DNA of 64,000 nucleotides from a virus. Both the position numbers and the translations under genes were made by a program. The DNA lies in IMG/VR virus record IMGVR_UViG_3300046557_000512, positions 1-64,000 of that record; one strand, given 5' to 3'. The notes under the pieces were generated by a model. That model saw only the letters and a program-made list of their open reading frames with translations, was not told the DNA's origin and searched no databases. Below, one piece after another: positions 4,181 to 19,864 of this stretch. The number at the start of each line of letters is the position of its first letter. Positions within the stretch are counted from its first letter, which is position 1.

Positions 4181-5232
4181 GAGCTTGCCTCCGTCGTCGT
4201 CAACACGTCGAGCGCCATCGTGGCGATGCGGTCGCGGTCGAGCTTGGTTTCGAGATGATCGCGGGCGAAGCTGGTCACCGCAGCGGCCAGGGTCAGACCT
4301 GGCGCTACGTTGGTGACCCCGCGGATGGTCGGTCGCTTCTTGCTGGAGTGGTCGACAATGCCGAGCGCGCCGACCTGCTCACACGCTTTGCGCGTGAGCA
4401 GGATCGCCGCTTCTTCCTCGTCTTGCAGGCGCAGGCGAACGTAGCTGCCGCGGATGTTGTCGGGGATGGCCTCACCAAGCCCAATCGGTTTGTCGACATT
4501 GACGAACTTGGGCGCGTTGCTCTCGATCTGCCCGACGCCGTTGTCGTCGACCATGAGCCACCCTGCGAGCGTGCCGGGATCGCTCCAGTTCTGATGCGAG
4601 GTAGCGCCGATCGACCAGACACCGCCGCCGAAATCGATCTGGTTGTGATAGTGCCCAGCGAACACACGATCGTAGCCGAGCATCTTGAGCTCGTCGGCCT
4701 CGAGACCGTGGTCGGGGATGCCTTTGATGACGCCATTCACCGGCGCGTGGATGACTAGATCGCCGGCACGGCCGACACCCCAGGCCATCGTCTTGCGGAG
4801 CTCGTCGAGGTCCTGGATCCAGGGCACCATGAAGACGCCGCCATCGAGGACGGTCGGCTGCGTGATCGCGGTGAAGCCGGGGATCTCATCGAGGGCCTGC
4901 ATGGCATTGCCCAGCGTGTTGCTGAACACGTCCTCGAGATCGTGGTTGCCCGCGATCGCCGCGACCTTCAGCCCCATCTCGACGCAAATCCGCTTGAAGG
5001 TCGCAATCGTGGGGTTCATCACCGAAGGGGTGATCTTGCCGCGGACGTGAAAGAGGTCGCCGGCAAGCAGCATCTGCCCCCACCCGCGTGCCTTGGTCAC
5101 CTCCGCCTGACGGATCAGTTCGTCGAGGATGATCTGCAGACGGCTGTTCACGCCATCGGCGGTGATGGAGGAGAAGACGGACCAGTCGTGACAGTGATGG
5201 TCGCTCGACAACGAGTAGGGGATGAATGTCAT
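4177..5232 (-). CDS. SbcD/Mre11/gp47-like metallophosphoesterase nuclease
   Basis: SDHH, AGDLFH, GNHD and GHYH motifs; adjacent to the SbcC-like gene. Confidence 0.9.
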   Translation of the reverse strand: MTFIPYSLSSDHHCHDWSVFSSITADGVNSRLQIILDELIRQAEVTKARGWGQMLLAGDLFHVRGKITPSVMNPTIATFKRICVEMGLKVAAIAGNHDLEDVFSNTLGNAMQALDEIPGFTAITQPTVLDGGVFMVPWIQDLDELRKTMAWGVGRAGDLVIHAPVNGVIKGIPDHGLEADELKMLGYDRVFAGHYHNQIDFGGGVWSIGATSHQNWSDPGTLAGWLMVDDNGVGQIESNAPKFVNVDKPIGLGEAIPDNIRGSYVRLRLQDEEEAAILLTRKACEQVGALGIVDHSSKKRPTIRGVTNVAPGLTLAAAVTSFARDHLETKLDRDRIATMALDVLTTTEASS

Positions 5233-5366
5233 TTCATTTCCGAAAAGCGCTCGATCAGGGCGGCGACGATGATGAAGAAACACATGACGCCAAAGAGGGT
5301 CGCGATGATCGATCCTTCCAGCTGTCGCCGGTTGAACCGCGCTTGCGTCTTTGCGTCATAGTCCAT
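5229..5366 (-). CDS. Small single-TM protein (45 aa)
   Basis: MDYDAKTQARFNRRQLEGSIIATLFGVMCFFIIVAALIERFSEMK; GGAGG RBS; ATGA overlap with the sbcD-like start. Confidence 0.6.
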   Translation of the reverse strand: MDYDAKTQARFNRRQLEGSIIATLFGVMCFFIIVAALIERFSEMK

Positions 5367-10635: not shown

Positions 10636-13600
10636 TTAGGGAGCGCAACCCCCATCGATCAATCTTTTGACCTGATTAAACAGACCGGCGAGCGTCTCGC
10701 GCTTGCCCTCGTCATGGTAGATCTGGCTTGGGTTGAATCCGATGATGACCGTGGCGTCCAGGTCTGCCGAGAAGGCCACCTTGCCGACGTGTTCCGCCTG
10801 TCCGCCCTTCAGGTCAGGGAAGAACATGCGGGTCGATTGAGGTCCGAGCGTGAGGATCACCGGCGGTTTCAGAATGTCGATCTCGCGCTTGAGGAAGGGT
10901 AGGGCGGTCGCCATCTCGCTCGCAGGCACCTCGCGCTCACCCTTCCGCTTGGGGCGACGCGCGCACCAGGTCCAGCACGCGTGGTCGACTTGCAACCCTG
11001 CGTCGGTCAGCGCAGGGCGGATGAACTCGACGAAGCTATATGCCTTAGGCAGCGGGTCGTAGTCATTGAGCGGCGCATCAAGGATCACCATGAAGCGGGG
11101 ATCATCACCGGGGTGGCAGGGGACCGCCGCGTTGCCGAGTGCGGCGAACATGTCGCCTGCCACGTTCGCCATGGCGTCGCCCGTTGGCCCGTCGACGGCG
11201 ATCACGCGCTCGGCGACCACAGCCTGGTCCATCACGCCGGGCATGAGCTCGATCTGATCGCGCTTGCGGCGCGCATCGGTTGCCGAAAGCTGACCTGGCT
11301 CGATGAGGCTGAACGCGCCGACCTTGTCGAGGTTCTCGATACCGCGGCTGGTAAGCACCCGGCCAGGCAGTCGCGCGCGGACGTCATCGATCGACACGAA
11401 GCGACCCGGCCCCCATTGGGTTTGGATCATCTCGCGAGCCTTGCCGCGCAACCCGTTCGACTTCTCCGTAATCACCGGCTCAGGGCTCGTGCGCGCCTCG
11501 ACGATCGCCTCGGCGCACTTGGATGAGACGTGCATGACGGCCGACAGCGGCGCTGCGATGATGACGTCGTTGATCGGCTCGAACATCGCTGTCGAAACGT
11601 TGATGTTCGGCGGAATGATCGTGATGCCATCCTCGTTTGCCTGCTTGATGATCGACGGCAGCTTGTCGGGGTGACTCACCGAGAGAGCGGCGGCATAGAA
11701 CTCGATCAGATAGTGGCTCTTGAGCCAGGCCGCCTGGTAGGCGATCAGCGTGTATTCGACGGCGTGGCTGCGGTTGAACGCGTAGCCGGCGAACTTCTCG
11801 ATCGAGTCGAACAGCGCGATCGCGGCGTTGGGCTGCATGTTGCTGACGGCTTGGGCGCCCTGCACGAACTTGTCGCGCTGCTGGGCCATCATGACAGGGT
11901 CTTTCTTACCCATCGCCTTGCGCAGCACGTCAGCCTCACCGGGCGTGAAGCCGCACAGCGCCCGCGCGGTCTGCATCACCTGCTCCTGATAGCAGATGAC
12001 CCCATAGGTGGCGCGAAGGACGGGCTCGAGGATCGGATTGTCGTAGGTCACCGGCGCGATGCCAGCTCGCCGCTCGATATATGCCTCGCACAGGCCGGCG
12101 TCGAGCGGACCAGGGCGGTTGAGCGCGTTCAGCGCCACGAGATCCTCGAATGTCAGCGTGTCTGATTTTGCCATCTGCTTGAGCAGGCGGCGCACCGAAG
12201 CGCCTTCAAACTGAAAGACACCGGCAGTCTTGGCCTTGGAGAAGACGGCGAGCGTATCAGCGTCGAACAGGTCGAGGCTGTTGAGGTCGATCTTTTTGCT
12301 GTGACGCTGGAAGATCAGCTTCAAGGCATAGTCGAACACGTCGAGCGTCGCGAGGCCCAGCACGTCGAGTTTCACAAGGCCCTGGTCCTCGCTCACGCGC
12401 TTGTCCCAGTTGATGACGCGGCCGTCAGAACGACGCTCGATCACCGCACGGTTGACGATGTCCTCGCCCGCGACGACGACGCCAGCGGCGTGCTGCCCGA
12501 ACGCGCGCATCTTGCCTTCAAGCGCGACCGCCTGGCTCCAGACAAGCGGGTGCTCCTCGGCGAACATTTCCACTTCACCGACGGTCTGCTTGGCTTCCTC
12601 GAGCGTCGCCGAGATGCCGTGGGTGTCGCCGATGAACTTGGTGATCGGCGCCAGGTCGAGGCGATCGTGAATGCGGAGCACCGATCGCAGCGCGTCGCGC
12701 GCGCCCATGGTGTTGTAGTTGACGATGCCGGCGACGCGCGCCTCGCCATACTTGTCGCTCAGGTATCGAATGACCTCTTCGCGGCGGGTCGACATGAAGT
12801 CGAGATCGGCGTCGGGAAGGTCGAGGCGATCCGGGTTGATGAAACGTTCGAACAGCAGATCGAAGCGGATCGGATCTACATCGGTGATGCCCATCAGATA
12901 CGCGACAAGCGAACCGCCGACCGACCCGCGGCCTGGTCCGACCAGGATCCCCTGAGCCTTGGACCAGCGCACCAGATCGGCAACCAGCAGGAAGTATTGG
13001 CTGAAGCCAAGCCGCATCAGCGTGTCGAGCTCGAACTTGAGACGCGGCACATAGGTGTCGGCGATCTCTTGGGGCGTCGGCTGGTGACCGAACACTGGCG
13101 CGGTGAAGCGCTCGCGAATGCCCGTCTTGCACGCCTCGAGGAGCGCGGCGTCTGGGTCAGTTGCGATGACGGGAAGGCAGGGGTCCTGTTTCGCCCAGCT
13201 ATACTGACACAGGTCGACCAGGCGCGCGGTGTTCTTGATGCCGGTTACGAACGCATCGAGGCTGGCCTGTGCGCCTTGAGCACCGGCGGTGTTGTATCGA
13301 ACGGTCAGCGCGTCCGCTGCAGACTTGGCTGCCTTGACCAGCGGCTCCACGGCGAGCGGCACAAAATCGGTCGCCGGGCGCAGGTAGTCGAAATAGGGAC
13401 GGTTCTCGGCGATCGACGCGTTGATCGAATAAACCAGCGCGTTGTCGCCCTCCCAGAACATCGGCTGGATGGTGATCGGTTCGGCGCCCATCGCTTGACC
13501 GATCGTGCGGGCGCGGTGGTTCTGCCGACTGAAATAGGGTGTCGCGCTCGGCACCAGCTCATAGAACACCGCAGCAAAGCGTGCCGTCTCGTTAAGCTGC

Positions 13601-14046
13601 ATCAGGTGTCGCGCGCTGTCCTGACGCTGCACAGCGCTCTCCAGGTCACCGGTCGTCAGCACGACATGCTCGGTCGCGACCAGTTCGCGAATGTCATCCC
13701 AGGTAACGCGCGCGTTGTAGTAGAAGCGATCGGCCTCGAAGCCGCGGGAGATCAGGCGATAGATCGATTGCAGTCCAACGAGGTCGATCGGCCATAGCTT
13801 GATGAAGCTCAGCGTCGCTTCCTTCTCGGCAGCGTCGACCACGCGGATGCGCGCGCCCACAACGACCTTCTTGCCGGCCTTGGCGAACGCCTTGCTCGCG
13901 TCGATCAGCGAGGACACGGACATCGTGTCGCAGATGCCGACGACGTCGGTCTGCAGATCCTCGGCGATCTTGACGAGGTTCTTCACAGCGATCGTTGATT
14001 CGCCGAGCGAAAAGTCGGTGCGGCCGCCAAGGGCAGGGTAGATCAT
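10636..14046 (-). CDS. dnaE: DNA polymerase III alpha subunit with C-terminal UDG-like domain
   Basis: GPGRGSVGGSLVAY, LLFERFINPDR, catalytic PDADLDF, HAAGVV, KLDVLGL, YAFNRSH; C-terminal FLKREIDILKPPVILTLG is a family-4 UDG-type segment. Confidence 0.95.
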   Translation of the reverse strand: MIYPALGGRTDFSLGESTIAVKNLVKIAEDLQTDVVGICDTMSVSSLIDASKAFAKAGKKVVVGARIRVVDAAEKEATLSFIKLWPIDLVGLQSIYRLISRGFEADRFYYNARVTWDDIRELVATEHVVLTTGDLESAVQRQDSARHLMQLNETARFAAVFYELVPSATPYFSRQNHRARTIGQAMGAEPITIQPMFWEGDNALVYSINASIAENRPYFDYLRPATDFVPLAVEPLVKAAKSAADALTVRYNTAGAQGAQASLDAFVTGIKNTARLVDLCQYSWAKQDPCLPVIATDPDAALLEACKTGIRERFTAPVFGHQPTPQEIADTYVPRLKFELDTLMRLGFSQYFLLVADLVRWSKAQGILVGPGRGSVGGSLVAYLMGITDVDPIRFDLLFERFINPDRLDLPDADLDFMSTRREEVIRYLSDKYGEARVAGIVNYNTMGARDALRSVLRIHDRLDLAPITKFIGDTHGISATLEEAKQTVGEVEMFAEEHPLVWSQAVALEGKMRAFGQHAAGVVVAGEDIVNRAVIERRSDGRVINWDKRVSEDQGLVKLDVLGLATLDVFDYALKLIFQRHSKKIDLNSLDLFDADTLAVFSKAKTAGVFQFEGASVRRLLKQMAKSDTLTFEDLVALNALNRPGPLDAGLCEAYIERRAGIAPVTYDNPILEPVLRATYGVICYQEQVMQTARALCGFTPGEADVLRKAMGKKDPVMMAQQRDKFVQGAQAVSNMQPNAAIALFDSIEKFAGYAFNRSHAVEYTLIAYQAAWLKSHYLIEFYAAALSVSHPDKLPSIIKQANEDGITIIPPNINVSTAMFEPINDVIIAAPLSAVMHVSSKCAEAIVEARTSPEPVITEKSNGLRGKAREMIQTQWGPGRFVSIDDVRARLPGRVLTSRGIENLDKVGAFSLIEPGQLSATDARRKRDQIELMPGVMDQAVVAERVIAVDGPTGDAMANVAGDMFAALGNAAVPCHPGDDPRFMVILDAPLNDYDPLPKAYSFVEFIRPALTDAGLQVDHACWTWCARRPKRKGEREVPASEMATALPFLKREIDILKPPVILTLGPQSTRMFFPDLKGGQAEHVGKVAFSADLDATVIIGFNPSQIYHDEGKRETLAGLFNQVKRLIDGGCAP

Positions 14047-14585
14047 AGGAGCTCCAGGACGGGGCCGGCGTAGCGTGCGCGACCCATTGAGATGAGAAAG
14101 GAAGCCTCGCGGCGAACCGCGCGCATCGAATAGCTTTCAGTGTGTTGGCGATGCTCGCGAAGTTCCGCAGCCAGGTCGTCAAGCGTCGCGGGTGAACTTC
14201 TCAGACGACCGACGACAATGCCGAGATTGCGTGACAGCGTCGCGAGTGCGTTGCGGTCGCAGGTGCGAGGGTCAATCTTGTCGCGACCACAGCGCGCTGC
14301 TGTCGCTTCGTGCGTCGCGTCGCGGTAATCATGCGCGAGACCGACCGCGATCAATGACTCATCTCGCAGCGCACGCTTGCGCGTCGCTCGCTCGCCGCGG
14401 GTCAGCCAGGCGTGGCTCATCGGCTTGCCTTCGGCGTCGTTGAAGCGGTCAAGCAACATGATGACCTTGGGGCGCAGGTCCGCCACGCGATCTTGGCAAC
14501 CGACGCGCGCGGGACAGCCTTGGCAGGTTGGGGTCTTGTGGTCGTAGGCGATCATCGAGCCAAAACAACCGGGTGGGCTTTGCAT
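14043..14585 (-). CDS. Hypothetical protein with Cys cluster
   Basis: PGCFGS...CQGCPARVGC putative Zn site; C-terminal winged-helix-like segment. Confidence 0.65.
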   Translation of the reverse strand: MQSPPGCFGSMIAYDHKTPTCQGCPARVGCQDRVADLRPKVIMLLDRFNDAEGKPMSHAWLTRGERATRKRALRDESLIAVGLAHDYRDATHEATAARCGRDKIDPRTCDRNALATLSRNLGIVVGRLRSSPATLDDLAAELREHRQHTESYSMRAVRREASFLISMGRARYAGPVLELL

Positions 14586-14622
14586 GTGTGTCACTTACCA
14601 TGCGCGAGCATAAGAGAGAAGC

Positions 14623-14654
14623 AAAAAATGGGCGGCCCCTTTCGAGACCGCCCG
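14623..14654 (-). terminator. Intrinsic terminator after the cobS-like gene
   Basis: Minus strand GGGCGGTCTC-GAAA-GGGGCCGCCC followed by ATTTTTT. Confidence 0.7.
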
Positions 14655-14698
14655 AGGTTGAGGAGAGGGATTTCAGGGCAACCCCCAAGCCCGTCACG

Positions 14699-15973
14699 TC
14701 AGCCTCCGAACACGCGCTGCGCGACCTGGCGCACAGCTTCGGCTTCTGTCTTGTTGAGGCGATTGATAAAGTTGAGATCGAGACCGTGGCGAAACTTGCC
14801 GCCCGTCGCGACGCCCTTCTTGGCGGCGCCGAGCACCTCGCGGGGGCTGATGGGCAGGCTGATCTCGCCCGCCTCATATTGCTCACGCACGCGCTCGGCG
14901 ACCTCGCGCAGCTTGGCGGCGATGTCCTGCTTCACCCCGATCCGGTTGATGATCATCTGGATCTCAACCTCCTTGGAGGGGTAGTCGATCCTGATGGACG
15001 TACCGAAGCGCGAGTAGTTCGCGGCGTTGCCGATTTTCGTGCCGGAGTAGAGGCCCGTATCGTCGCCCGACCCATTGGTATTGCCCGTCGCGACGAACCG
15101 GAAGTTCGCGTGCGGCTTGACCAGACGCATCGATGGCGGCGCCTCTTTGATGTAGAGCGCCTTGCCCTCGAGCACCGGCTGATAGACCGCAAGGACACCA
15201 GGGTGGGCGACGTCGTATTCATCGGCGAGATAGGTCCAGCCGTTAATCATCGCCACCGCGAGAGGCCCATAGTCGAAGTGGGTTGCGCCTTCGCGCACCA
15301 CCATCTGACCTATGATATGGCTTTCTTCGGTCGTGTCCGTGTGCTGGACGCGAATCATCGGACGATTGGTGCGCGCCAGGATCTGCTCGAGGAACGACGT
15401 CTTGCCCGTGCCGTGCGGCCCGTAGGCGTAGAGGTTGTCGTTGAGCGCGAGGCTCATCAACGCGTCCTTCAGCTCGTCGACGCGGAACACATAGTCATTG
15501 TCGATCTCAGCCACCGCCTCCTGGCTTTCGGCCGAGTTGCCGACCAGCACGTCAATCTTGATGACGTCACCCTCGGCCGCACCACGGCGGGGTGCGGTGC
15601 GCGCGCTTGCATCGAGCGGCAGGCCGAACACCTGATACATCGGCTTGCGCTCGACAGTGTCAGGGCGGGCGAACGGAATAATCTTTGCTTGGGCAGCCAT
15701 CTCCTGACGAACCTCCTCACGCTTCTCTGCTAGAATGCGCGCCTCAGCGCGATCGAATGCCTGCGACGTAACCGGTGCGTCGGGATACCAGCTCTTGTAA
15801 TCGTCCAGGGTTACCCCGCGGGGCGATGCGGTGGCGGCGCGACTAGCCTGGTGGTTGGCGTCAGCGAGGTGCTTGCCGATGTGGTGCACCGCAGCCCCGC
15901 AGATCTCGCATGTGATGGGGGATTCGTCGAACTCCTCGCTCGACCCCGCCATCGCAACATTGGTCTGTGTCAT
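14699..15973 (-). CDS. CobS/MoxR-family AAA+ ATPase with N-terminal Zn finger
   Basis: Walker A GPHGTGKT, Walker B YLADEYD, FRFVATGNT, NAANYSRF, ISPRE; N-terminal CEIC...HL...H. Confidence 0.9.
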   Translation of the reverse strand: MTQTNVAMAGSSEEFDESPITCEICGAAVHHIGKHLADANHQASRAATASPRGVTLDDYKSWYPDAPVTSQAFDRAEARILAEKREEVRQEMAAQAKIIPFARPDTVERKPMYQVFGLPLDASARTAPRRGAAEGDVIKIDVLVGNSAESQEAVAEIDNDYVFRVDELKDALMSLALNDNLYAYGPHGTGKTSFLEQILARTNRPMIRVQHTDTTEESHIIGQMVVREGATHFDYGPLAVAMINGWTYLADEYDVAHPGVLAVYQPVLEGKALYIKEAPPSMRLVKPHANFRFVATGNTNGSGDDTGLYSGTKIGNAANYSRFGTSIRIDYPSKEVEIQMIINRIGVKQDIAAKLREVAERVREQYEAGEISLPISPREVLGAAKKGVATGGKFRHGLDLNFINRLNKTEAEAVRQVAQRVFGG

Positions 15974-16067
15974 TCTAAACTCCTCGTTACCGTCTCTTGC
16001 GGTGATTCTCAGGTAGCAGCTTTTTGAGCGGCTGTGAATGGGTGTTATCTACTATGCATAAAAGCCA

Positions 16068-17327
16068 TCAGCTGACGAGGAAGCGCTTAAGCGTCGCCAT
16101 CAGCTTCGCCGGCATTTCCTGGAGGTTCTGAATGACCATCGAGTTGGGATAGTAGTTCGTCACGCCGGCGTGCTGGATGCCGACCCCGACGATATCGACA
16201 CCGGCCGCGGCCACTGCCTTGACGGTCTCGGCCGCATGCGCGGGATAGCTCATCGCCCTATGTGACTTTCTCGGCCCCTGGGGTAGGCCATCCGACAGAA
16301 CGATCATCAGCTTGCGCTTGGCTCGCTGCTCGATCAGGCGGCGAGCGGCGAAGTCCACCGCGCAGCCTTCGATCGTGCTGCCCATCGCGATCGCGCCGGC
16401 GGTGTTGTAGACTGCGGCGAACCGACGCTGGATGTCGATCGTGAACGGCTCGCCGAACTCTTTGAACCGGGGGTAGGAAAGCGGCGTAAAGCGGGAGATT
16501 GGCGCGAGCGCGTCGGCATGGTCGACCTCAGCCATATATGCCGCGTCAGGCTGGAAGTGCAGCGTCGTGTAGCCGAGCACCTCGAACGGCACGCCGATGC
16601 GATGAAGCACCGATGCGATTGCATAGGCGGACTTTGTCGCCAGCGCGATCCTGGAGCTGCGGTGAGAGCCGCCATTGTAATTGTTGCCCATTGAGCCGGA
16701 GCAGTCGATCACCAGACTGACAGCCGTGTCGAGCGCGAGCGCTTCCTGCTTGCGATAGAACACGCGGTCATCGCCGCTCACGACGCGGTGAAGCGACGAG
16801 CTGTTTAGCTTTCCCTTGCGCTGCCCCGGCAACCGCACCGATTGCGTGCGGGCTGCGATCAGGCGCGTCAGTTCCTTCTGCAGCGGGCCGACGACCGAGG
16901 CGGTGTCGTTCTGCAGGAACTCGAGGGACACGCCGTGCGTGCCAATGTCGGTGAGCTCGTCCAGGTCCTTCGTGAATACGCGATAGGGCTGGTCCGTCTC
17001 GGCGATCGAGCGCTCGATGAACGCCGACAACATCTCGTCCATGTCCATCAGCTGGTCGGTGTCGATGTTGATGGGTGTGTCCTGCCCGACGTTCGTGTCG
17101 GAGCTGCCTGCGCCTCCGATGCCTTCGTCGGGGATCTCTACGCCGTCATCGTCGTCAGTCCAGGCGCCCAGCTGATCCTCGATGTCGCGCATCTCAATCA
17201 GGTGGTCAGCAAAGGCGCTGTCGCTGACCGCGAGCGCTTCCAGATCGCCCTTCAACGCGTCGGGCCAGGCCGACGAATAGGGTCCGTAGCTATCGACGAT
17301 ATCGACCGCAGAATGAAAGTCCAGCAC
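16068..17327 (-). CDS. CobT-like VWA protein (C-half) with N-terminal anti-sigma-like helical domain
   Basis: YRVFTKDLD, RKGKLNSSSL...DDRVF, MIDAS DCSGSM, EVLGYT, IVLSDG, VGVGI. Confidence 0.88.
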   Translation of the reverse strand: MLDFHSAVDIVDSYGPYSSAWPDALKGDLEALAVSDSAFADHLIEMRDIEDQLGAWTDDDDGVEIPDEGIGGAGSSDTNVGQDTPINIDTDQLMDMDEMLSAFIERSIAETDQPYRVFTKDLDELTDIGTHGVSLEFLQNDTASVVGPLQKELTRLIAARTQSVRLPGQRKGKLNSSSLHRVVSGDDRVFYRKQEALALDTAVSLVIDCSGSMGNNYNGGSHRSSRIALATKSAYAIASVLHRIGVPFEVLGYTTLHFQPDAAYMAEVDHADALAPISRFTPLSYPRFKEFGEPFTIDIQRRFAAVYNTAGAIAMGSTIEGCAVDFAARRLIEQRAKRKLMIVLSDGLPQGPRKSHRAMSYPAHAAETVKAVAAAGVDIVGVGIQHAGVTNYYPNSMVIQNLQEMPAKLMATLKRFLVS

Positions 17328-17330
17328 GCT

Positions 17331-18638
17331 CTAGCTCCTCAAAATCCGTGCGAGTTCGCGACGAGCGTCCCGCAGCATCTGTTCGACCTCCGAAACACCG
17401 ACGTTCAATTCGCCCGCAATTTCGTCGACCGACTTCTTGAGCTTCTTCTGCATGAAAAGAGCGCGTCTGAGGGTGGGATCGAGCATCGCCAGCGCATCCG
17501 TCATCGTGACGTTGCGGTCGCCATCCTCATCGCTGCCGGCAGGCTCGTCATCATCGCGGTCGCCTTGGTCATTTCCAGACCCAGACGATCCGCCGCCGCA
17601 GTTATCCTGTGGACCGTCGTCGCCATCTCCCTCATCAGCGCCGTCTTGCCCATCGTCCGTGTCGTCAGCATCATCCGATTCGGTGCCGGCGCCGTCATCA
17701 TCGCTCTGGTCATCGCCAGCTGGCTCACCGTCGTCAGGCTCACCGCCTTCATCAGACGCATCGCCTTCGTCATCATCGCCCCCTTCGCTGTCATCACCTT
17801 CGTCTTCGCCGTCAGCGCCGGGCTCAGTGCCAGGCTCGTCGTCATCGTTCGGCTGCGTGTCGTTCTCGGCATCGTCCTCGCGCTCGCCTTGGCCGTCGCC
17901 GTCGCCCTTCTGGGGCTCGTCGTCCTGTTCGGGCTCATCATCCTGATTGTCGTCACTGGGGGGCGGGGGAGGAGGGGCGGGAGGAGCCGGCGGTGGCGGG
18001 GGAGGGGGTGGAGGCGTGAGAGCCTTGTCGAGCGCGAGGACGCACGCCAGCACGTCGTCATAGGTTTCCATCGCCTGGATCTGCGTGCCGAAGCCCGGCA
18101 GGCGATCGAGCAGCGGCTTCATGTGTGGCCAATAGGCGTTGCGGTCCATCAGATCGATGAAGACCTTCTGGCCTCCTAGCGCGCGCATTGTCGGCACGAG
18201 AAGCACCGCGGCGATGTGTGACGGGTCTTTGGCCTCGATCGCCTTGTCAACGCCTGGCTGGATCAAAAGCGGGATCCAGTTCACATACATCCGCTCCAGA
18301 TTGTCTTTGGTGCCGGGCAGGTCGCGCGGCAGCATCTTCTCGAGGCGGATATCCTCGAAGATATTGGCCAGTTTGGCCCGCGAGTTGTCATTGGGGATAC
18401 GCTTGAACGGCGTATAGAAGATGTGGCCACACTCGTGATCGACATAGCCCTGGAGCGCGTCGATCAGCATCTGCGACGGCTCGTCGGGGATCTCGGGGAG
18501 ATTGAGGTGCGAGACCTTGCCCGTGCGCTTGTCGGCCGCGACGTAAGGTGTGACACCGCGGAAGGTGACCTTGACGCCCCGTCGTGTCAGCATGCTGACG
18601 GTGCGCTTTAGCGCCTCCTTCCTGATACTCGTTTGCAT
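17331..18638 (-). CDS. CobT-like N-half (HExxH domain, acidic linker) ending in a sigma-70 region-4-like HTH
   Basis: GYVDHECGH and NIFEDIRLE motifs, poly-Pro and D/E/G linker, C-terminal DALAMLDPTLRRALFM...SVDEIAGELNVGVSEVEQMLRDARRELARIL; GAGGAG RBS before ATG 18638. Confidence 0.85.
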   Translation of the reverse strand: MQTSIRKEALKRTVSMLTRRGVKVTFRGVTPYVAADKRTGKVSHLNLPEIPDEPSQMLIDALQGYVDHECGHIFYTPFKRIPNDNSRAKLANIFEDIRLEKMLPRDLPGTKDNLERMYVNWIPLLIQPGVDKAIEAKDPSHIAAVLLVPTMRALGGQKVFIDLMDRNAYWPHMKPLLDRLPGFGTQIQAMETYDDVLACVLALDKALTPPPPPPPPPAPPAPPPPPPSDDNQDDEPEQDDEPQKGDGDGQGEREDDAENDTQPNDDDEPGTEPGADGEDEGDDSEGGDDDEGDASDEGGEPDDGEPAGDDQSDDDGAGTESDDADDTDDGQDGADEGDGDDGPQDNCGGGSSGSGNDQGDRDDDEPAGSDEDGDRNVTMTDALAMLDPTLRRALFMQKKLKKSVDEIAGELNVGVSEVEQMLRDARRELARILRS

Positions 18639-18681
18639 GTCGCTCCTCGTGCGTGTGTGTTGTTCTATATGCACTCACTAG

Positions 18682-18724
18682 CACAAAGCAGCGATCGCAC
18701 AAGCTGGCGATCGCGGCTTTTGTG
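18682..18724. terminator. Hairpin, possible terminator upstream of the cobT-like operon
   Basis: CACAAAGCAGCGATCGC...GCGATCGCGGCTTTTGTG imperfect inverted repeat. Confidence 0.45.
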
Positions 18725-18728
18725 TGGG

Positions 18729-18935
18729 TCATGATCTGGGGACGACGTGGATCGCGACCGATGTGCCGTCGGGGCCTCGATACGCGATCCTATCGATGTC
18801 GAAGATTGCTATGCCACCGGCGTCGAGGAATTGCCGCCTCGTAGGATGTGCCGCCGCGTCGATCTCGGCGAACTCGTCGAAGGGCAGGGGCTCCAGCAAG
18901 AGCTGGAATGCGTAGAGCTGTTGGTCGGTCTGCAC
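18729..18935 (-). CDS. Small hypothetical protein
   Basis: AGGAGG RBS before the GTG start. Confidence 0.55.
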   Translation of the reverse strand: MQTDQQLYAFQLLLEPLPFDEFAEIDAAAHPTRRQFLDAGGIAIFDIDRIAYRGPDGTSVAIHVVPRS

Positions 18936-18991
18936 GTTGTCCTCCTTGGAGAATCAGGCGTGCAGACGCGCATCCAACATTGCAACCGCGA

Positions 18992-19588
18992 TTAGATCGC
19001 GGTCACTGCCTCTTTGAGGGCACGGCGCTGCTTGGGATCCAAGCCATTTTCGACCAGCTCGGGTCGACTTTCCCGAATGACATCCATGATGCCGAGCTCG
19101 GGGATAGTCAGCCAGCGTCGGATCGCCCGCGAGTCCGCGGCCGCTTCCTTCAGCACGCCGTAGTGGTCGCGCGACAGATTCGACAACGGGATGCCGGCGG
19201 CGGCTTGCAGGTCGTCGAAGACCATCTGTTCGTCGTCAGCCATACCCTTAGCCAGGTTCGCCTTCGAGCCCACCAGAATGCGCAGGAAGTCGATGTTGGG
19301 ATATCGCTGCTCAAGCACGGCCAGCAGGAACTCAGCCGCGTCGAGCTTGATGAGCCGAACGAAGTCCGGCACACGCTCGATCGGGATCGGGGCTCGGCCG
19401 CTCGCCATGTGGCTGATCACGACAGACGACTTGTAGCCGAGGTTCTTCGCCAGGGCTCGCTGGCTGATGCCAGAGTCCCTGTCGAGTTTCTCGACGCCGT
19501 CCTTGAACATCCTCGACGCTTTGGTGTGCGCCAGGGGATAGTCGTCGTTCTGTGCTGCGGTCGGCAGCTTGATAACACTTGCGCTCAT
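18992..19588 (-). CDS. XRE-family HTH transcriptional regulator (candidate repressor)
   Basis: ISQRALAKNLGYKSSVVISHMASGRAPIPIERV is a typical XRE HTH; located next to the replicon. Confidence 0.8.
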   Translation of the reverse strand: MSASVIKLPTAAQNDDYPLAHTKASRMFKDGVEKLDRDSGISQRALAKNLGYKSSVVISHMASGRAPIPIERVPDFVRLIKLDAAEFLLAVLEQRYPNIDFLRILVGSKANLAKGMADDEQMVFDDLQAAAGIPLSNLSRDHYGVLKEAAADSRAIRRWLTIPELGIMDVIRESRPELVENGLDPKQRRALKEAVTAI

Positions 19589-19864
19589 TTTCTTTCTTAC
19601 TCCGTCCAATGTTGTGTAGAACGGTATGCAGGTGTTTGATAGCTGCTTCACACACACCCCGCAAGGGGAGAAATGCGCAAGTCAGTCGCCGCAATTCTGC
19701 GAACGAATAGTGAACACCATGCGCGAGATCGCCGCACGGACGGAGCCCCTTCAGGGGCGGAGCTCCGTTCGGGCGGCGCGGTTAAGAGTCACTGTTTGAA
19801 TCTATTTGTTACAGAGTTAGGGTTGCAATTCGCACGTAATTACAAAGCGCTGCGATGCAACATC

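Follow-up and report, generated by a model that had tools for sequence, protein, structure and literature searches.

How can a CobT-like protein that is normally made as a single chain come as two, and why should the break carry pieces resembling a sigma factor and its inhibitor? The question is raised by a locus in the 64,000-nt stretch of DNA analysed here (the window; positions 1 to 64,000 of IMG/VR virus record IMGVR_UViG_3300046557_000512), where two adjacent genes encode the N-terminal half (N-half) and the C-terminal half (C-half) of a CobT-like adaptor with a von Willebrand factor A (VWA) domain. An earlier note on this DNA had proposed that the junction of a sigma/anti-sigma operon was captured into the linker of the adaptor and now serves as a clasp. 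We observed that the split is conserved, that the modules on both sides of the break are conserved and strictly co-occur, and that they are homologous to the ends of sigma and anti-sigma proteins. Based on sequence comparison and structure prediction, we give a probability of about 65% to the reading that a captured sigma/anti-sigma cassette re-tethers the split halves as a non-covalent clasp.

The two open reading frames (ORFs) are 3 bp apart and together encode what is otherwise one CobT-like protein, with the coordinates and content that the earlier note had given. In a comparison with the 729 positions of the family phrog_1576, the N-half covered positions 11-412 and the C-half positions 406-728; the two match complementary stretches and are therefore halves of one normally single protein. 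In the N-half a proline run begins at residue 221 and the Pfam domain Sigma70_r4_2 occupies residues 392-441, while in the C-half CobT_C/VWA was found at residues 189-417 and the first 76 residues gave no Pfam match. Right behind the N-terminal module of the C-half, acidic linker sequence resumes, as had been remarked before; it runs for 36 residues.

When the N-half was searched against protein databases, about 30 homologues (380-467 aa) were obtained, with identities down to about 35%; most of them carry a precomputed region-4 domain, and one is named only 'Sigma-70, region 4' at NCBI. Single-chain relatives (700-780 aa) were more distant from the N-half than these short homologues. The corresponding search with the C-half also gave about 30 homologues (436-489 aa), which span 97-100% of the C-half. 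Recurring in about 30 independent homologues of each half, the arrangement is no chance pattern. Twenty loci were taken from genomes and viral contigs, and the junction was read in 12 of them, the window included. Stop and restart overlapped as ATGA (three junctions), TAATG (three), GTGA (one) or TTGA (one), and in four cases, among them the window, a stop was followed by one codon and a start. At 4 of the 12 junctions the C-half was in frame with the N-half; at the rest it was shifted by one base. A purine-rich ribosome-binding site was present inside the last codons of every N-half (12/12 junctions). The C-terminal tails of the N-halves are conserved (…GG, …KGAR[AN] or …RS; 17334-17345 in the window), and it is the C-half's Shine-Dalgarno sequence that encodes them, so that this conservation is probably one at nucleotide level, for ribosome binding, and not a protein feature.

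These junctions also bear on whether the window holds two real genes. Its ORFs share a frame and are parted by one stop and one codon only, as would be expected if the TAG came from faulty sequencing or from a recent mutation making a pseudogene, or were read through in a programmed way. However, stop and restart were kept across the clade at all 12 junctions, mostly in different frames with ATGA, TAATG or GTGA overlaps, and both kinds of protein have been called separately in dozens of independent assemblies. As the halves lie mostly in different frames, read-through cannot give a fused protein. The 12 junctions thus rule out sequencing error, pseudogene and programmed read-through, to which we assign practically no probability, and the earlier worry that the stop at 17331-17333 might be an error or an isolate-specific lesion falls away. 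At the DNA level, a search with the locus yielded one 127-nt match in plasmids and no match in phages. Among sequencing runs, none of RNA was listed for the locus, and the single DNA run that covers it in full is probably the source sample. A second rhizosphere run gave a 185-nt contig over 17328-17512 with 4 differences, which is too short and too near its own end to inform on the stop.

Hidden Markov models built from the modules flanking the 12 junctions were run on the 150 proteins of both searches. The sigma region 4 (sigma-4) module was found at the extreme C-terminus of 29 of the 31 short N-types and the three-helix module at the extreme N-terminus of 32 of the 43 short C-types; each was present in 0/76 long unsplit forms. 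The 11 short C-types lacking the three-helix module are fragments or another, shorter kind of C-half. The proteins P0099, P0102, P0106, P0108 and P0118 (324-354 aa) are VWA-only C-halves without the anti-sigma-like module and most of the linker, begin just ahead of a Y-x-V-[FY]-[ST]-x-[DE]-[FW]-D motif, and may be independent CobT-like gene splits without this clasp.

An alignment with unsplit CobT homologues, which the earlier note had suggested as a way to define the insertion, located it about 36 residues upstream of a shared DMDxML motif, within the acidic linker, and found the split conserved within a clade. In a maximum-likelihood tree of the N-terminal domain, 28 of 29 split forms fell into one well-supported clade, with the unsplit P0009 basal to it and the long-branch split form P0051 just outside. 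The unsplit P0028 (731 aa), which has neither module, was nested inside the split clade with starred support, which suggests that the cassette was later lost cleanly and as a whole (re-fusion) or that recombination took place. The simplest reading of this tree suggests one gain of the cassette followed by one clean loss or recombination, in keeping with a self-contained linker insert.

The end of the N-half had been read as region 4 of an extracytoplasmic function (ECF) sigma factor, and this was borne out. Sigma70_r4_2 scored 27.2 bits with the whole N-half and 32.6-32.7 bits with the excised 60-aa piece, against a gathering score of 25.7, and it was matched by the modules of 12/12 split homologues (best E 2e-11); weak PhyR_sigma-like Pfam matches were seen in three of the 12. 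The best natural sequence match in the Protein Data Bank (PDB) was the sigma-4 domain of SigL from M. tuberculosis, in a crystal structure that also contains the anti-sigma RslA (3hug). In an AlphaFold2 (AF2) model of the whole N-half, residues 375-435 folded with a predicted local distance difference test score (pLDDT) >90, and the module superposed on region 4 of SigL and sigmaE with a root mean square deviation (rmsd) of 0.5-1.1 Å over 55-57 residues. An exhaustive VIA structural search returned sigma-4 domains as all top 20 matches (Z 8-10). By profile and by predicted fold the C-terminal module of the N-half is an ECF-type sigma region 4, a four-helix fold with a helix-turn-helix (HTH). 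While the ECF sigmas used for comparison carry region 2, no Sigma70_r2 match was obtained in the N-half with Pfam, and the N-half is therefore not a sigma factor.

The module at the start of the C-half comprises about 58 aa and was modelled by AF2 (pLDDT 90.5) as a three-helix bundle with helices at residues 4-14, 23-35 and 37-55. A profile of the module found 186 matches among 1.84 billion representative proteins. Besides CobT C-halves, these were almost all small proteins (50-200 aa) whose residues 1-60 form the module, and a transmembrane (TM)-like stretch was present in 88 of the 121 matches at least 110 aa long. In the small proteins that were aligned, the module is followed by RWW, then by a hydrophobic helix and finally by a short tail; the module of the split proteins aligns nearly gap-free with their N-termini and has an invariant G...WP in common with them. 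In the reverse direction, a profile of 20 small proteins matched the module of the window with E 3.6e-9. A PDB sequence search with the module profile produced chance matches only, such as 'YG..ARWPA' in ribosomal protein L17. The module model had no Foldseek match in the PDB. The exhaustive VIA search over 48,161 chains placed the anti-sigma domain of RsiW first (Z 6.0, rmsd 2.6 Å, 64 residues) and that of MucA second (Z 5.3, rmsd 2.8 Å, 53 residues), with RslA, RskA, PupR and RseA lower in the list; the weight of these matches lies in the enrichment for one protein class, not in Z.

Some results speak against an anti-sigma identity. The 12 modules gave no Pfam match, no curated anti-sigma model of Pfam or NCBIfam reached threshold, and the homologous small proteins had only sub-threshold matches to DUF3379, NF052375 'antisigma' and PRK13920; in addition, Z values of 6.0 and 5.3 are modest for a small helical domain. 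The profile match to anti-sigma factors expected by the earlier note was obtained through the module's own profile, the small-protein family and the RsiW and MucA structures, but not through any curated model. The D.YG.....WP motif that the earlier note had named as an anti-sigma N-terminus is real and occurs in the small-protein family beside ECF sigma genes. A fourth helix, which binds sigma-2 in class I anti-sigma domains (ASDI), is missing, and behind helix 3 the acidic, poorly structured linker begins again; this absence is consistent with a partner that has no sigma-2. No conserved cysteine or histidine was found in the module alignment, which makes a redox switch of the zinc-dependent anti-sigma (ZAS) type unlikely. 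Taken as a whole, homology and modelling support that the N-terminal module of the C-half is the sigma-4-binding part (helices 1-3) of a class-I-type anti-sigma domain.

The small single-pass proteins are 140-190 aa long and, in the loci examined, are encoded directly after an ECF sigma gene. Two Paraburkholderia and 10 alphaproteobacterial loci (L022, L026, L037-L046) have the family gene directly downstream of a canonical ECF sigma gene that encodes regions 2 and 4 and that it usually overlaps by ATGA, and in at least eight of these 12 a gene for a periplasmic Metal_resist (PF13801) protein stands at position +2. In total, the order of a sigma gene followed by the anti-sigma gene was seen in 14 loci. 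The proteins have an N-terminal [DA]-x-[YF]-G-x-x-x-x-x-W-P, RWW followed by a TM helix, and an F-T-P-T-x-D-E-E tail. Of the genomes sampled, members were present in 70 of 301 from Alphaproteobacteria, in 21 of 26 from Paraburkholderia, and in just 2 of 41 from the order of Paraburkholderia G004. Operons of an ECF sigma, a small TM anti-sigma and Metal_resist are arranged as has been described for ECF281 and ECF290, two groups related to heavy metals (PMC7826278), a likeness of gene context and not a formal group assignment. A soluble 99-aa protein with the same N-terminal module and no TM helix is encoded at 5058-5357 of locus L033 (contig 2 of genome G112), adjoining flagellin-like genes and about 3.5 kb downstream of an ECF sigma whose region 4 has a high score with the profile of CobT sigma-4; the family may thus include a variant located in the cytoplasm.

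Does this operon type account for both modules? When the CobT sigma-4 profile was run over Paraburkholderia G004, the two best matches were ECF sigmas encoded directly upstream of small anti-sigma genes. In 21 Paraburkholderia genomes the cognate sigma ranked best in 18 and second in three; in 24 alphaproteobacterial genomes it ranked best in 10, second in two and third to fifth in two, and was unlisted in 10. In alignments, the recognition helix reads S-x-[ED]-x-[AV]-x-x-L-L-x-x-[AG]-R-R-x-L in the CobT modules and in the cognate sigmas alike, which is unusual. The acidic start of this helix (E/D instead of the usual GTVKSR) was considered as a sign of lost DNA binding and dropped, because the bona fide cognate sigmas are the same. 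Counting against a common source, the 21 Paraburkholderia genomes belong to one genus and are not independent, and FecI-like, EcfG-like or PhyR proteins scored higher in the 10 alphaproteobacterial genomes in which the cognate sigma was unlisted. Judged from sequence, the similarity to the cognate ECF group is preferential, not exclusive, and a unique derivation from it cannot be claimed, as cognate sigmas are enriched but not the sole best matches. Because of the order of the modules, the like stop/restart geometry and the preferential sigma similarity, the cassette very probably is a captured sigma/anti-sigma operon junction; the alternative origin would be two independent acquisitions that met at one break.

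Complex prediction for the sigma-4 module and the three-helix module reached ipSAE values of 0.77, 0.77 and 0.75, compared to 0.02 for the best of three controls, in line with the earlier expectation that the two termini would be predicted to interact. The runs agreed in at least 72% of contacts, with a partner pLDDT of at least 80. In the predicted interface, residues 44-58 of sigma-4 face residues 9 and 12-15 (helix 1) and 45-57 (helix 3) of the module, including the invariant columns L47 and R51 of sigma-4 and D12, G15, L53 and W56 of the module. In known ASDI, helices 1-3 form a bundle of which helices 1 and 3 bind the last sigma-4 helix (RseA D11 to RpoE R149/R178), while helix 4 binds sigma-2 (PMC7406223); the predicted contact of a helix-1 aspartate and helix 3 with the last sigma-4 helix agrees with this binding mode. 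The cassette also retains matching halves, with sigma-4 but no sigma-2 on one side and helices 1-3 but no helix 4 on the other. Two points reduce the weight of the prediction. The mark applied to ipSAE is reached by 58 of 80 solved complexes and by 2 of 110 mismatched pairs, a calibration that holds just roughly for a prediction made with our own 12-row alignments, and since sigma-4/anti-sigma complexes have already been solved, the result may partly reflect likeness to them. As a modelling result, the pass therefore means likeness and compatibility of the modules. Of the clasp proposed in the earlier note, the split, the modules, their co-occurrence and the predicted complex have held up, and the binding itself is predicted only.

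If the clasp reading is right, the cassette would have been captured once into the disordered acidic linker of the adaptor. The sigma-4 module would bind the anti-sigma-like module as their ancestors did, through the aspartate of helix 1 and helix 3 against the last sigma-4 helix, and the halves would be re-tethered non-covalently and constitutively into a working adaptor for the CobS-like ATPase, equivalent to the unsplit protein, with translational coupling delivering both halves together. In the CobST complex the N-domain of CobT binds the periphery of the CobS ring and is joined to the VWA domain just by a long flexible linker, and the VWA domain inserts into the CobS pore upon ATP binding (bioRxiv 10.64898/2026.10.09.757910). 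The linker is merely a tether there, so that a cut within it should be harmless, provided that a tether exists.

The same architecture also provides an argument against a necessary clasp, as both halves may bind CobS unaided and the clasp is then perhaps not strictly needed. The cassette could accordingly be a vestigial passenger that caused the split and whose modules no longer bind, the halves assembling only because each touches the CobS ring by itself. In CobST, N-domain and VWA domain do contact CobS independently of one another (bioRxiv 10.64898/2026.10.09.757910), and the short C-halves without module described above (P0099, P0102, P0106, P0108, P0118) indicate that a cassette-free split seems viable. 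Nevertheless, both modules are kept in every split member down to about 35% overall identity and fold confidently, their invariant residues cluster at the predicted interface, and 115 aa inserted in a disordered linker to no use should be prone to decay. We therefore regard a vestigial cassette as very unlikely.

The modules might instead form a regulated switch, in which assembly of the adaptor is conditional on their pairing, or in which a sigma-4 module freed from the C-half binds -35-like DNA or the beta-flap of RNA polymerase and couples the motor to the control of transcription or replication. The sigma-4 HTH is predicted to be complete and confidently folded, its recognition helix is similar to that of functional cognate ECF sigmas, and the operon lies within a replication module, beside an HTH gene and repA. 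On the other hand, action as a sigma factor is precluded by the lack of sigma-2, and a signal input is not visible in a module without a cysteine/histidine zinc motif, helix 4, or a membrane or sensor part. Moreover, the invariant sigma-4 residues sit at the predicted protein interface, and the tight translational coupling argues for co-production in step. A switch is thus unlikely.

The distribution of the family bears on a decoy or hijack, another idea of this kind: sigma-4 would bind a host anti-sigma, or the three-helix module a host ECF sigma, and the host protein would be sequestered or delivered to the HExxH/AAA+ machine as a device of host takeover. A real and widespread sigma/anti-sigma pair is homologous to the modules (70/301 sampled Alphaproteobacteria, as given above), the N-half has a conserved HExxH and weak metallopeptidase-like structural matches, and PhyR is a precedent for a sigma-like domain turned decoy, to which the weak PhyR_sigma-like matches may be added. 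However, in a small sample of three host genomes with the split gene, the CobT C-half was the sole clear full-length match to the anti-sigma family in Sphingomonas G001 and Ca. Sphingomonas G003, and Novosphingobium G002 had one further match, a partial one (positions 26-113). Moreover, the break always carries both modules, and no unsplit protein has one of them by itself, which fits self-pairing better, and we consider a decoy quite unlikely. Rather improbable, too, is a competitive interface with host ECF signalling, in which host anti-sigmas of this family or their sigmas would displace a module, so that the HExxH/VWA/AAA+ machine would be assembled, disassembled or aimed at a host sigma or anti-sigma depending on the host's state of envelope or metal stress.

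The features of the split gene and of the gene that follows it are collected in Table 1.

Table 1. Positions in the window of the genes, junction elements and domains of the split CobT-like adaptor, and of the adjacent ATPase gene.
Feature	Positions	Strand	Remarks
N-half gene, split CobT-like adaptor	17331..18674	minus	447 aa from GTG 18674 or 435 aa from ATG 18638; stop TAG 17333-17331
C-half gene, split CobT-like adaptor	16068..17327	minus	419 aa; start GTG 17327
Junction: TAG stop and one in-frame codon, AGC (17330-17328), before GTG	17328..17333	minus	
Shine-Dalgarno GAGGAG of the C-half	17335..17340	minus	Within the final codons of the N-half, 7 nt ahead of GTG
Helical HExxH domain, CobT-N-like (HECGH 18423-18437)	18015..18620	minus	Sub-threshold Pfam CobT, invariant columns, AF2
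Proline-rich, then acidic disordered linker, first part	17514..18014	minus	167 aa, 41% D/E; AF2 pLDDT <50
ECF-type sigma region 4 module (by profile and model), C-terminus of N-half	17334..17513	minus	Sigma70_r4_2 and structure superposition
Putative anti-sigma-domain-like three-helix module (helices 1-3 only), N-terminus of C-half	17154..17327	minus	Profile homology and AF2
Acidic linker resumed behind the module, until the DMDEML motif common with unsplit relatives	17046..17153	minus	36 residues
CobT_C/VWA domain with MIDAS (metal ion-dependent adhesion site) DCSGS (16692-16706)	16077..16763	minus	PF11775 E 1.9e-22; PF00092 at cut-off
CobS-like MoxR-class AAA+ ATPase (presumed motor partner), next gene downstream	14699..15973	minus	AAA_5 E 1.6e-17; phrog_249 E 2.6e-83

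The N-terminal domain of the N-half is related to that of CobT at some distance. The Pfam CobT domain scored 23.2 bits, below its cut-off of 26.1, while PF06213 is given in the precomputed table for most homologues. In the alignment of this domain the columns D-H-E-x-G-H and E-D-x-x-x-E are invariant, the latter about 25 residues downstream of HExxH, and AF2 modelled it with a pLDDT of about 90. Weak structural matches were obtained to the minigluzincins selecase and proabylysin (Foldseek probability 0.63-0.75) and to ZMPSTE24 (Z 5.8), and from the model a small metallopeptidase is possible.

The record as a whole is an 80.3-kb virus contig with RepA (RPA family) and a DnaE-type polymerase near the split gene. 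The split loci, and of the unsplit ones the closest (L015), have the order HTH protein, CobT-like, CobS-like, orf183 (without a Pfam match) and DnaE, which takes up 10636-19657 on the minus strand of the window; more distant unsplit loci have at least CobT, CobS and DnaE in common (loci L001-L020). A CobS-like gene is adjacent in related loci, split or unsplit, whose sequence extends far enough. No CobN-Mg_chel match was found in the 80-kb record (75% complete). With the order CobT-CobS-DnaE conserved and no CobN in the record, a role of the CobS/CobT-like motor in the replication module is more likely than one in cobalamin synthesis, and the protein made of the two halves is best called CobT-related, not CobT. 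The DnaE-type polymerase itself (10636-14046, minus strand) has a C-terminal domain of the uracil-DNA glycosylase superfamily (PF03167, E 1.1e-5, residues 983-1116).

Compared with the CobS/CobT cobaltochelatase, the adaptor has a similar helical N-domain, a long flexible acidic linker and a C-terminal VWA domain with MIDAS, and a CobS-like AAA_5 ATPase is encoded next to it. It differs in being two polypeptides, in its sigma-4/anti-sigma cassette, its conserved HExxH and its sub-threshold CobT score, and in standing in a phage-plasmid replication module near DnaE in a record in which no CobN was found. Unsplit phrog_1576 proteins (P0009 of locus L015, and a Klebsiella 'cobaltochelatase CobT-related protein' on contigs of about 110 kb) are homologous over both halves, but are encoded by a single ORF of 700-780 aa and have neither module.

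With ECF sigmas and their class I anti-sigmas (RpoE-RseA 1OR7, SigW-RsiW 5WUQ, AlgU-MucA 8Z6G, SigL-RslA 3HUG) the cassette has in common the fold and Pfam family of sigma-4, the three-helix bundle, an anti-sigma start that follows directly on the sigma end (often ATGA), and, in the predicted complex, the contact between the helix-1 aspartate and an arginine of the last helix. In contrast to these pairs, it lacks region 2, helix 4, membrane anchor and sensor and is embedded in the linker of an unrelated protein, and therefore cannot serve as sigma factor and inhibitor. In PhyR, a sigma-derived domain has lost its function in transcription and serves as a binding surface for the anti-sigma NepR; while PhyR has retained a part like sigma-2 as well as one like sigma-4 and remains a regulator of a sigma factor, the window keeps sigma-4 alone, presumably in a structural role. 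Split inteins (DnaE) and the docking domains of nonribosomal peptide and polyketide synthetases are cases of two polypeptides with complementary terminal modules at the break. Intein motifs and splicing are missing here, and the docking pair would have been recruited from transcription regulation. The components are of known kinds, and what is new is a sigma-4/anti-sigma pair as the proposed clasp of a split non-transcriptional protein; in our literature searches, neither a split CobT nor a sigma/anti-sigma clasp was found to have been described.

The analysis draws attention to an unexplained CobS/CobT-like motor that is kept beside DnaE across a family of phages and phage-plasmids, and it uncovered a widespread anti-sigma family without any curated model. 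The pair itself is minimal (about 55 aa and 58 aa, without sigma-2, helix 4 or membrane part), would be the smallest self-sufficient sigma-4/anti-sigma unit, and is a possible orthogonal docking pair. Through capture of an operon junction into a disordered linker, a gene fission would have been caused and repaired in one step. If the modules bind, the interface of a transcription regulator would have been naturally reused as the heterodimerisation clasp of an unrelated split protein.

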